This document shows positions 48,068 through 49,309 of a DNA stretch of 64,000 nucleotides, piece after piece. The notes beneath the pieces were generated by a model. It had not been told where the DNA came from. It saw only the letters and a list, made by a program, of their open reading frames with translations, and made no database searches. This DNA is from a plasmid. The position numbers and the translations under genes are program-made. The stretch's first letter is position 1, and each line of letters begins with the position of its first letter. Location: the sequence record NZ_CP069398.1, one strand, 5' to 3'.

Positions 48068-49309
48068 ATGATAGCTGATGAATTTGATGTATTTTTATTT
48101 GACTTAGATGGAGTAATTTATATAGGATCAGAACCACTTCCTGAGGCAGTAGAATCACTTAGGCGTCTTCGAAAAGAAAAGAAAGAGATTAGATTTTTAA
48201 CTAATGATCCATGTACAACACGGGAAAAAACAGCAAAACGGTTAAGTAAGCTAGGTATAGAAGCAAGCAGCGAAGAAGTAATTACGTCTGGTTGGTTGAC
48301 CGCACAATATTTACACCATGAAAAAGTCAGAACTGCATTTGTTTTAAGTGATGAAAATTTAAAATGGGAATGTCAACAAGTTGGTATCAATATAAAAGAT
48401 CAAACCAATGTAGAAGCCGTTGTTGTTGGGTGGGACGATAATGCGTCTTTTCATGATATCCAGAAAGCAGCAAAATTTATTCATAAAGGATCAAAATTTG
48501 TTGCCACAAATGCAGACAGAACGTTTCCAACCCCTGAAGGTCCTTTACCTGCTGTTGGGGCAATGGTGGAAGCGATACGGGTTTCAACAGAGAAAAGACC
48601 TATCATTGTCGGAAAACCTTACCCTTATATGTTTAAAAAGGCACTTGAAGATTTTATTCCATCCTCCAGAGCAGTAATGGTGGGTGATAATCCATATACT
48701 GATATTTTGGGCGCACATCAGGCAGGAATACCGGCCATTTTGGTATCAGAGCAAAATGTTAAAAAGTTCCCGTCAGCAAGAGATTTCCGCAATCCAGATG
48801 CTACGATACCAAATTTAAAGAGTTTATTTGACAGTAATATAAACATAAAAAAGTGGATTTCCCCTTCCTTTTCTTGGCCAGATAATATCGAAGCAGGAGT
48901 TGCAGGCATTATTTTTGATAAAAAACAGCGAGTTCTTCTAATGAAACGTGCAGATAACGGATTATGGGGAATTCCATCGGGCCATGTTGAGCCAGGAGAA
49001 ACTGTAGAGGAAGCAATCATCAGAGAAATTAGGGAAGAAACCGGTTTGAGAGTCAAAGTTAATAGGTTAATCGGAGTTTATTCTGATCCTGTTTCTCAGG
49101 TTTTTTCATATCCAAACGGTAATGTAAGTCACTTTATTACAACATGTTTTGAATGTGAAGTTATAGGTGGAACTCTAAATAGAAAAAGCGAAGAGACATT
49201 AGATGCGGATTATTTCGACTTTAATCATTTACCAGAAAATCTCCTAAACATGCATCCAAGATGGCTTAAGGATGCATTAGAAAGGGAAAGAATTTCTTAT
49301 ATTCGTTAG
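48068..49309 (+). CDS. HAD-IIA phosphatase / NUDIX hydrolase fusion protein
   Basis: HAD motif I FLFDLDGVIY and motif IV VGDN...DILGA; C-terminal NUDIX box GHVEPGETVEEAIIREIREETGL. Confidence 0.75.
   Translation: MIADEFDVFLFDLDGVIYIGSEPLPEAVESLRRLRKEKKEIRFLTNDPCTTREKTAKRLSKLGIEASSEEVITSGWLTAQYLHHEKVRTAFVLSDENLKWECQQVGINIKDQTNVEAVVVGWDDNASFHDIQKAAKFIHKGSKFVATNADRTFPTPEGPLPAVGAMVEAIRVSTEKRPIIVGKPYPYMFKKALEDFIPSSRAVMVGDNPYTDILGAHQAGIPAILVSEQNVKKFPSARDFRNPDATIPNLKSLFDSNINIKKWISPSFSWPDNIEAGVAGIIFDKKQRVLLMKRADNGLWGIPSGHVEPGETVEEAIIREIREETGLRVKVNRLIGVYSDPVSQVFSYPNGNVSHFITTCFECEVIGGTLNRKSEETLDADYFDFNHLPENLLNMHPRWLKDALERERISYIR

Follow-up and report, generated by a model that had tools for sequence, protein, structure and literature searches.

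A YzgD-type HAD-IIA/Nudix fusion enzyme encoded in a predicted bacimethrin-type operon within a Tn3-family transposon

Bacimethrin is a thiamin antagonist whose toxicity arises through ThiD, ThiE and ThiL (PMC3020362). In Escherichia coli, the HAD phosphatase Cof converts hydroxymethylpyrimidine pyrophosphate (HMP-PP) to its monophosphate, HMP-P, and confers bacimethrin resistance (PMC5989160), and the Nudix enzyme NudJ dephosphorylates HMP-PP and thiamin pyrophosphate (TPP) in vitro (PMC12359138). Members of the same two superfamilies are joined in the protein studied here, a product of 413 amino acids encoded at 48068–49309 on the plus strand of a 64,000-nucleotide stretch of plasmid record NZ_CP069398.1 (hereafter the window). 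We conclude with near certainty that this open reading frame (ORF) is an orthologue of YzgD, a bifunctional HAD-IIA phosphatase/Nudix NDP-X diphosphatase (NDP-X, nucleoside diphosphate-X), and that it is the last gene of a TPP-riboswitch-attenuated bcmB-bcmA-bcmC-yzgD operon, which is itself the cargo of a 7.8-kb Tn3-family transposon.

YzgD was characterized in vitro by Tirrell et al. in 2006 (Biochem J 394:665, PMID 16336194). As related in PMC5627462, its HAD domain cleaves pyridoxal phosphate (PLP) and is inactive on thiamin monophosphate (TMP), TPP and thiazole phosphate (thiazole-P); HMP-P and the bacimethrin phosphates lay outside the assayed panel. Its Nudix domain hydrolyzes many NDP-X compounds, with a preference for ADP-X/NDP-X; CDP-alcohols are among the substrates and a nucleoside monophosphate is the product (PMC5627462). 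The Km for flavin adenine dinucleotide (FAD) is 3.7 mM (PMC6002036), which suggests that the physiological substrate of the Nudix domain is still to be found. A genome paper of 2017 placed yzgD in the bacimethrin/thiaminase I operon and suggested protection from toxic thiamin analogues; in Paenibacillus thiaminolyticus and P. apiarius this operon has a TPP riboswitch and reads thiM-thiD-thiE-glycosyltransferase-thymidylate synthase-methyltransferase-yzgD-thiaminase I-HAD (PMC5627462). Neither the fusion nor the protective hypothesis is new, as both are already in the literature; what is new here is the minimal four-gene operon as cargo of a Tn3-family transposon, together with a survey of gene context across the family.

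Nudix enzymes clustered with thiamin genes hydrolyze oxy- and oxo-thiamin diphosphates (Goyer et al. 2013, Biochem J 454:533; related in PMC5627462). These damage-preemption enzymes, among them Tnr3 of Schizosaccharomyces pombe and its plant and yeast homologues, are fused to or clustered with thiamin kinase or biosynthesis genes and act on diphosphates of toxic analogues, so that a kinase is paired with a proofreading diphosphatase, as may be the case for ThiD and YzgD. Unlike YzgD, they have no HAD domain and their substrates are not bacimethrin derivatives, and the likeness is at the level of the superfamily. HAD enzymes are also found inside thiamin operons: HAD-IA TMP phosphatases clustered with or fused to thiD/thiE were reportedly described by Hasnain et al. 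in 2016 (Biochem J 473:157). One each occurs in the Paenibacillus operon (cluster c10) and in a metagenome contig discussed below (L081), but these enzymes belong to subfamily IA rather than IIA and cleave TMP, on which the HAD domain of YzgD is reported to be inactive.

The fusion enzyme and its operon

The window protein aligns with UniProt P46351 (413 aa; 'Uncharacterized 45.4 kDa protein in thiaminase I 5' region'), the YzgD of P. thiaminolyticus, without a single gap along all 413 residues of both; 58% of positions are identical and 74% are positives. This end-to-end orthology led us to reject the idea of a novel fusion. P46351 shares a 90%-identity cluster with the P. thiaminolyticus gene of one surveyed locus (L030), which lies upstream of thiaminase I, and a protein database search found the window protein to be 100% identical to one annotated from Heyndrickxia sporothermodurans.

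The original prediction had described a single 413-aa ORF with an N-terminal HAD motif I and a C-terminal NUDIX box, and this description is confirmed in full. The ORF runs from ATG to stop at exactly those coordinates, and its translation contains FLFDLDGV at residues 9–16 and GHVEPGETVEEAIIREIREETGL at residues 305–327. The HAD-IIA domain spans residues 7–254 (48086–48829, plus strand; Pfam, TIGR01460), with motif I (FDLDG) at residues 11–15. The NUDIX domain spans residues 276–396 (48893–49255, plus strand; Pfam PF00293), with the Nudix box at nucleotides 48980–49048. The Pfam scores are 88 bits for Hydrolase_6 (residues 9–107), 67 bits for Hydrolase, 56.7 bits for Hydrolase_like (residues 181–251) and 84.5 bits for NUDIX, against a cutoff of 21.1 for the last. 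The protein passes the HAD-IIA subfamily model TIGR01460 of NCBIfam (150.7 versus a cutoff of 100.15) and stays below the curated cutoffs of the HAD-IIA equivalogs TIGR01457 (YutF; 152.4 versus 247.65) and PRK10444 (NagD; 122.1 versus 368) and of the phosphoglycolate/PLP phosphatase equivalog TIGR01452 (144.8 versus 201.95). Likewise, no Nudix equivalog among MutT, NAD+ diphosphatase, RppH, YtkD and others reached its cutoff (at most 50 bits versus 97–450).

Both active sites are complete. The HAD catalytic residues D12, D14, T45, K183, D207 and D212 are present, and the Nudix box, G-x5-E-x7-RE-x2-EE-x-G, is intact (G305, E311, R319, E320, E323, E324 and G326). Catalytic residues of both domains are invariant or nearly so across the YzgD family. 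Among 74 full-length family sequences, those of the HAD domain are kept in every sequence that covers them; one locus (L017) seems to have no counterpart of the first three, only because its match is truncated at the N-terminus. Degeneration of the Nudix box is restricted to a handful of distant relatives from Chloroflexota and Rubrobacter: E320, E323 and E324 are substituted, with all HAD residues kept, in L043, L047, L062, L070, L073 and L080 (Rubrobacter, Thermomicrobia and Ktedonobacteria). The pattern of conservation suggests that HAD activity is the conserved core of the family and that the Nudix domain may be non-catalytic in some lineages.

An AlphaFold model of the fusion protein is confident (pLDDT 87.6, pTM 0.79). 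Foldseek matched it in the PDB to single-domain HAD-IIA structures only (Rv1692, TM1742, NagD and PLP phosphatase), with query-normalized TM-scores of at most 0.57; there was no two-domain template and no ligand-informative Nudix neighbor among these matches, and the family is not known to have a solved structure with both domains. The nearest solved Nudix structure is 3SMD, itself uncharacterized.

Upstream of yzgD, the operon opens with a TPP (THI-box) riboswitch aptamer at 45559–45669 on the plus strand (Rfam RF00059; 79.8 bits versus a gathering threshold of 54.3, E = 3.9e-14), which matches model positions 1–105 in full. Its expression platform is an intrinsic terminator hairpin at 45709–45734 (plus strand), a 10-pair stem followed by the T-run TAATTTTTTA, which stands after the aptamer and ahead of the first start codon (45761). 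The first gene (45761–46216, plus strand; 151 aa) encodes a BcmB-like CMP/hydroxymethyl-CMP N-glycosidase. In a PDB sequence search its product matched the CMP (cytidine monophosphate) N-glycosidase 4JEN (E = 1.6e-50) and MilB (4JEM, E = 1.8e-48), versus about 1e-3 for true nucleoside 2-deoxyribosyltransferases. The second gene (46229–47233, plus strand; 334 aa) encodes a BcmA-like CMP 5-hydroxymethylase of the thymidylate-synthase fold, with E values of about 1e-100 to the CMP 5-hydroxymethylase MilA (5JNH/5B6D) versus 1e-17 to the best ThyA. The third (47260–48015, plus strand; 251 aa) encodes a BcmC-like S-adenosylmethionine-dependent methyltransferase (Pfam Methyltransf_25, Methyltransf_11 and related models), 45–50% identical to the methyltransferases of Clostridium and Leuconostoc bcm clusters and 63–70% identical to that of Paenibacillus.

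The intergenic gaps are 12, 26 and 52 nt. A ribosome-binding site, AAGGAGAG, lies 7 nt upstream of the yzgD ATG; the terminator scan found no terminator within the operon, including between bcmC and yzgD, and a palindromic hairpin terminator (49336–49371, no strand assigned; 16-pair stem, 4-nt loop) closes it. This arrangement points to co-transcription of yzgD with the bcm-like genes as one riboswitch-to-terminator unit. The fusion gene had been placed at the end of an antimetabolite operon, and it is indeed the last of four genes between riboswitch and closing hairpin. The riboswitch had gone unmentioned in the original prediction; it implies that expression of the entire operon should be restricted to conditions of low TPP. 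With BcmB-, BcmA- and BcmC-type genes together, the operon is of the bacimethrin type, and bacimethrin is its predicted product. ThiD, thiaminase I, ThiE, ThiM and ThiC gave no tblastn match within the 64-kb window.

The closest described counterpart is the P. thiaminolyticus operon. Its YzgD has the same length, the same domain order and all catalytic residues in common with the window protein, and in both cases yzgD directly follows a bcmC-like methyltransferase gene in a TPP-riboswitch operon that includes bcmB- and bcmA-like genes. Unlike the window, P. thiaminolyticus also has thiM-thiD-thiE upstream and thiaminase I and a HAD-IA hydrolase downstream, whereas the window operon is a minimal version of four genes that lies inside a Tn3-family transposon. 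The bacimethrin cluster bcmABCDE of Clostridium botulinum, which was reportedly described by Cooper, O'Leary & Begley in 2014 (Biochemistry 53:2215), also offers a comparison. Clusters of the C. botulinum/C. sporogenes type have homologous bcmB, bcmA and bcmC in the same order, with 54%, 56% and 45% identity, respectively, to the window genes; unlike the window, they add thiaminase I (BcmE), a ThiD-like kinase (BcmD) and an adjacent MarR regulator and ABC exporter, and the window operon differs in turn by the presence of yzgD.

Distribution of yzgD and its link to TPP riboswitches

At least 902 proteins matched the fusion in a protein database search, nearly all of them full-length HAD-IIA plus NUDIX proteins of about 412 aa. 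Gene context was surveyed in 80 loci (numbered with the prefix L) returned from 252 confirmed relatives in species-representative genomes, and the phyla represented are Bacillota, Chloroflexota, Synergistota and Actinomycetota, together with haloarchaea. By tblastn, an intact bcm-like trio adjoins yzgD in 14 of the 80 loci, all in Bacillus or Paenibacillus relatives, and remnants of it are found in 3 more. We therefore rejected yzgD as a gene specific to bacimethrin operons; the intact cassette is limited to those 14 loci, and bcm clusters without yzgD exist.

With a covariance model based on five TPP riboswitches that Rfam had confirmed, a riboswitch of this class was detected upstream of yzgD, on the same strand, at about 24 of the 80 loci; the scores range from 63 to 127 bits. 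Gene maps resolve these into five architectures. The order riboswitch-bcmB-A-C-yzgD (a) is found in the window, L001, L002, L007, L008 and L016; L009 has the same genes with no riboswitch match above threshold. A thiD gene precedes yzgD in riboswitch-bcmB-A-C-thiD-yzgD (b; L025, L029 and L033, and in degraded form L024), and the long Paenibacillus operon (c) is found in L022, L023, L026, L028 and L030. Clostridium ljungdahlii and C. ragsdalei (L010, L011) have riboswitch-thiD-thiM-thiE-yzgD with no bcm genes (d). Finally, yzgD alone follows the riboswitch (e) in L005, L012 and L013 (Shouchella, Paenibacillus) and in Desulfotomaculum (L037). Thus thiD shares an operon with yzgD in three architectures, and it lies directly upstream of yzgD in L024, L025, L029 and L033.

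Further thiamin elements were seen near yzgD at individual loci. In an actinobacterial metagenome-assembled genome (Egibacteraceae; L053, 8001–11226), a TPP riboswitch and thiC come directly after yzgD. In Clostridium lapidicellarium (L018, 5130–9245), two tandem TPP riboswitch matches precede a divergent thiC, one gene away from yzgD.

Several loci have lost the biosynthetic genes. Aligned by blastn, the bcmBAC deletions have breakpoints at window positions 45831/47599 in L004, 45769/47931 in L005, 45735/48055 in L013 and 45749/48056 in L031, and bcm remnants are left in L004, L005, L027 and L024. The riboswitch and a full-length, catalytically intact yzgD are nevertheless kept in L004, L005, L013, L027 and L031. 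Persistence of a riboswitch-controlled, intact yzgD after loss of bcmBAC is what one would expect of a resistance gene. At L031 (2105–9377), the bcmBAC segment (window 45750–48055) is replaced by a 425-aa gene, so that the cargo consists of the riboswitch, an insertion sequence (IS) and intact yzgD. The gene in between was considered as a new pathway gene and rejected, as its sequence, judged by eye, resembles an IS110-type transposase.

A candidate role in thiamin-antivitamin handling

Our preferred reading, held tentatively, is that YzgD may be a sanitizing enzyme of the pyrimidine/salvage branch of thiamin metabolism or an antivitamin-resistance enzyme, with its substrates and protective effect both inferred. 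In this scheme, low TPP would permit transcription of the operon through the riboswitch, and BcmA, BcmB and BcmC would convert CMP to bacimethrin. Host ThiD would pyrophosphorylate bacimethrin on the way to toxic 2'-methoxy-thiamin-PP. The Nudix domain would then take the terminal phosphate off the analogue diphosphate (bacimethrin-PP and/or the TPP analogue), and the HAD-IIA domain would take off the remaining phosphate to release the harmless free base. The second step would act on a 5-(phosphooxymethyl)pyrimidine; PLP, a known HAD substrate, is chemically similar, being a 2-methyl-5-(phosphooxymethyl) heteroaromatic like HMP-P. In producers YzgD would serve as self-protection, and in non-producers that salvage HMP it would give resistance to bacimethrin or damaged pyrimidines from neighbors. 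The sanitizing reading would explain why yzgD is co-regulated both with production and, in non-producers, with thiD-thiM-thiE salvage, why it adjoins thiD and persists as orphan copies, and why the cargo is so minimal.

E. coli Cof and NudJ/YmfB, which belong to the same two superfamilies, provide the mechanistic template for this function. They differ in being two separate proteins without TPP-riboswitch control, and Cof is of subfamily HAD-IIB, not HAD-IIA. Their action on HMP-PP is said to have been described by Lawhorn, Gerdes & Begley in 2004 (JBC 279:43555). Of the original prediction, the appeal to Cof and NudJ is borne out by the published precedent (PMC5989160, PMC12359138). Producer protection stands in part: operon context, domains and precedent favor it, but immunity in the strict sense is too narrow, given the intact cassette at 14 of 80 loci and several bcm clusters without yzgD. 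Some of the substrates that had been proposed are less likely, as the HAD domain is reported to be inactive on TMP, TPP and thiazole-P.

Several observations weigh against the sanitizing reading, beginning with that reported inactivity on thiamin phosphates (PMC5627462). Hydrolysis of HMP-PP would also oppose ThiD of the same operon, so that selectivity for the analogue must be assumed. A number of the stand-alone riboswitch-yzgD loci descend from one cassette and are not independent observations. Neither thiamin context nor a riboswitch accompanies yzgD at some 50 of the 80 loci, namely those of haloarchaea, Chloroflexota, Actinomycetota, Synergistota and many Bacillota, and because of these loci the ancestral function of YzgD may be general. 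Finally, no yzgD, HAD or Nudix gene is present in the C. sporogenes/botulinum-type clusters (L082, L083; MarR-ABC exporter-bcmB-A-C-thiaminase I-thiD) or in the cluster of Leuconostoc litchii (L084), which has bcmB-A-C only, so yzgD is no universal requirement of producers. The ABC exporter of the C. sporogenes-type cluster could substitute for yzgD; the Leuconostoc cluster has no equivalent of any kind.

The loci outside thiamin context raise the alternative that YzgD is a general housekeeping enzyme, a vitamin B6 phosphatase and broad NDP-X hydrolase, which would lack a dedicated thiamin-related substrate and would have reached thiamin and bacimethrin operons by hitch-hiking in particular lineages. 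The breadth of the family fits this explanation, with its hundreds of proteins and 252 confirmed relatives extending to haloarchaea, as do the generic HAD-IIA enzymes among the nearest structures and the unrelated neighbors at most loci. ORF clustering and inspection of adjacent genes found no conserved thiamin neighbors at the archaeal, Chloroflexota, Actinomycetota and Synergistota loci, except for riboswitch-thiC in L053, and the genes next to yzgD at such loci encode MFS and ZIP transporters, carbamate kinase, a sugar-phosphate isomerase and an amidase. A TPP riboswitch at about 24 of 80 loci is, however, much more than chance would give, since each genome has only a few such elements; the linkage recurs in unrelated architectures with divergent riboswitch sequences, and riboswitch and intact yzgD outlast the deletion of neighboring genes. 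A housekeeping role fits the wide distribution, not the repeated riboswitch linkage, and we regard it as unlikely. Full-length haloarchaeal homologues (L048-L057, L064, L066, L068, L069; Natrinema, Natrialba, Haloarcula and others) have no thiamin gene context and are about 49% identical to the Bacillus protein. Their occurrence suggests transfer of the fusion between domains of life.

Viewed from the side of the bcm genes, 361 BcmA homologues were found at E ≤ 1e-20. One metagenome contig (L081) carries thiD-thiE-HAD(IA), a NUDIX::BcmA fusion (P0186), and then methyltransferase-thiaminase I-permease-TenA. P0186 (L081, 7001–8269) is a BcmA-type CMP hydroxymethylase with an N-terminal NUDIX domain and an intact Nudix box; bcmB was not found within 15 kb, and the Nudix domain occupies its usual position. 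Orthology of this domain to the Nudix domain of YzgD was rejected, since the two domains resemble each other in the Nudix box alone (34% over 56 residues). Nudix and HAD enzymes have been recruited to the bacimethrin pathway at least twice.

P0186 bears on two further explanations that tie YzgD to nucleotides. One is a biosynthetic helper whose Nudix domain feeds BcmA with CMP from CDP-alcohols, CDP or CTP and so raises bacimethrin flux. CDP-alcohols are Nudix substrates that yield a nucleoside monophosphate (PMC5627462), BcmA-type enzymes use CMP, the second gene of the window is far closer to MilA than to ThyA, and P0186 carries another kind of Nudix domain directly on the N-terminus of BcmA. 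On the other hand, bcm clusters exist without yzgD, and the always-intact HAD domain would be left without a role, and a nucleotide phosphatase would destroy CMP. The second explanation is a nucleotide-pool cleaner, in which the Nudix domain returns kinase-made 5-hydroxymethyl-CDP/CTP to 5-hydroxymethyl-CMP (hmCMP) and prevents misincorporation into RNA and DNA. Nudix enzymes classically clean non-canonical nucleotides, P0186 physically ties such an activity to the hydroxymethylase, and HAD-IIA relatives such as NagD are among the nearest structures; yet the Nudix domain of P0186 is like that of YzgD only within the Nudix box. The original prediction had likewise offered dephosphorylation of a nucleotide intermediate of the pathway as its alternative. 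The CDP-alcohol activity and the NUDIX::BcmA fusion lend some support to all three ideas, but each leaves the same copies unexplained: riboswitch-controlled yzgD persists intact where bcmBAC has been deleted and also accompanies thiD-thiM-thiE with no bcm genes, and at such loci there is no local BcmA to make hmCMP. We accordingly disfavor the pathway intermediate and consider a purely biosynthetic role unlikely, the CMP-supplying helper being quite improbable and the hmCTP-cleaning function very much so.

The riboswitch linkage could also reflect mobilization of thiamin reserves, with the Nudix domain cleaving adenosine thiamin di/triphosphate or ADP-thiazole at low TPP to release usable thiamin phosphates. 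TPP riboswitches turn on supply genes in starvation, yzgD adjoins riboswitch-thiC in L053 and lies near it in L018, and the family is present in haloarchaea, which use the Thi4/ADP-thiazole route. Against this, the archaeal loci have no linkage to thiamin genes, and Bacilli use ThiG rather than Thi4. The reported preference of the Nudix domain for ADP-X and NDP-X would suit such substrates, whereas the reported inactivity of the HAD domain on TMP and thiazole-P would not (PMC5627462). We give this explanation very little credence.

The Tn3-family transposon and its implications

The operon lies within a 7.8-kb transposon (41644–49430) that has a Tn3-type transposase, GGGG-type inverted repeats and a site-specific recombinase, and that has the same end points in three genomes. 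The left terminal inverted repeat (41644–41682, plus strand; GGGGTAGCAACAGCGTAGCTGTCATTACCCGCAATAAAC) and the right one (49392–49430, minus strand; reverse complement GGGGTAACAACAGCGTAGCTGTCATTACCCGCAATAAAC) are 39 bp long, start with GGGG and differ from each other at one position. Homology with L001 and L031 starts at 41643, and homology with L001, L002 and L031 stops at 49430–49432. The transposase TnpA (42391–45375, minus strand; 994 aa) scores 948.7 bits against NF033527 (cutoff 500), with Pfam DDE_Tnp_Tn3 at E = 1.4e-142. A 235-aa tyrosine recombinase, the likely transposon resolvase, is encoded at 41687–42394 (minus strand; Pfam Phage_integrase, E = 1.4e-31) and overlaps the tnpA stop by 4 nt. 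The cargo consists of the riboswitch operon only, that is, three biosynthetic genes and yzgD, without an exporter.

In Pallidibacillus pasinlerensis (L001), blastn found 99.9% identity to the window over exactly 41643–49432, and the presence of a copy bounded by these ends implies that the element passed recently from one genus to another. Bacillus thermotolerans (L031) has both end points in common with the window at 79–83% identity. In L002, by contrast with these full-length copies, homology is limited to 45440–49431, so that the operon is present without the transposase. A 32-nt imperfect inverted repeat (45445–45526; arms 45445–45476 and 45495–45526) lies between the tnpA start and the riboswitch, where the L002 homology begins, and it may be a resolution site at which cargo modules are exchanged. 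A search of a plasmid collection with the operon matched the yzgD part alone, in one Clostridium estertheticum plasmid at 79% identity.

As a candidate 5-bp target-site duplication, the 5-mers that flank the transposon, TACAA and TTCAA, agree in 4 of their 5 letters; the flanking genes are unrelated, and the site may have been rearranged. On the left, an IS21-family transposase ORF (40893–41690, 265 aa) matches its model only to position 239 of 294 and runs into the left inverted repeat, and it appears to have been truncated by the transposon insertion. The right flank holds an unrelated UgpC/MalK-like ABC ATPase gene. Elsewhere in the window, Rfam matched a group II intron D1–D4 region at 22104–22277 and domain V/VI at 24581–24678, 25774–25851 and 30213–30290, the last two with equal scores. 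ORFs of 545, 365 and 561 aa are interleaved with these matches, and several group II introns, whole or fragmentary, appear to be arrayed in tandem across 22104–30290.

Putative antivitamin production can thus move between genera as a self-contained, riboswitch-regulated 7.8-kb unit. In its most specific form, our proposal would make YzgD a dedicated antivitamin-resistance enzyme, a two-step bacimethrin-PP/2'-methoxy-thiamin-PP phosphohydrolase under TPP-riboswitch control that spreads on a Tn3-family transposon, either with the bcm genes or alone as an orphan; we consider this possible but doubtful. As a thiamin antagonist, bacimethrin is increasingly credited with ecological relevance, and recent work on cyanobacterial blooms is one example (PMC12637900, PMC12345177). 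A bacimethrin field study of 2025 makes no mention of bcm genes, Nudix enzymes or self-resistance.

The outcome is a sharper, testable hypothesis for a 20-year-old enzyme, and it refines existing knowledge rather than constituting a discovery. TPP-riboswitch control with and without bcm genes, intact orphans after independent deletions and the minimal cassette on a transposon narrow the role of YzgD to the handling of thiamin pyrimidines or antivitamins, and point to HMP-P, HMP-PP, bacimethrin-P, bacimethrin-PP and 2'-methoxy-TPP as candidate substrates. If the proposal is true, YzgD would gain the physiological substrate that has been missing since 2006 and would be the first known case of a mobile determinant dedicated to resistance against a vitamin antimetabolite.

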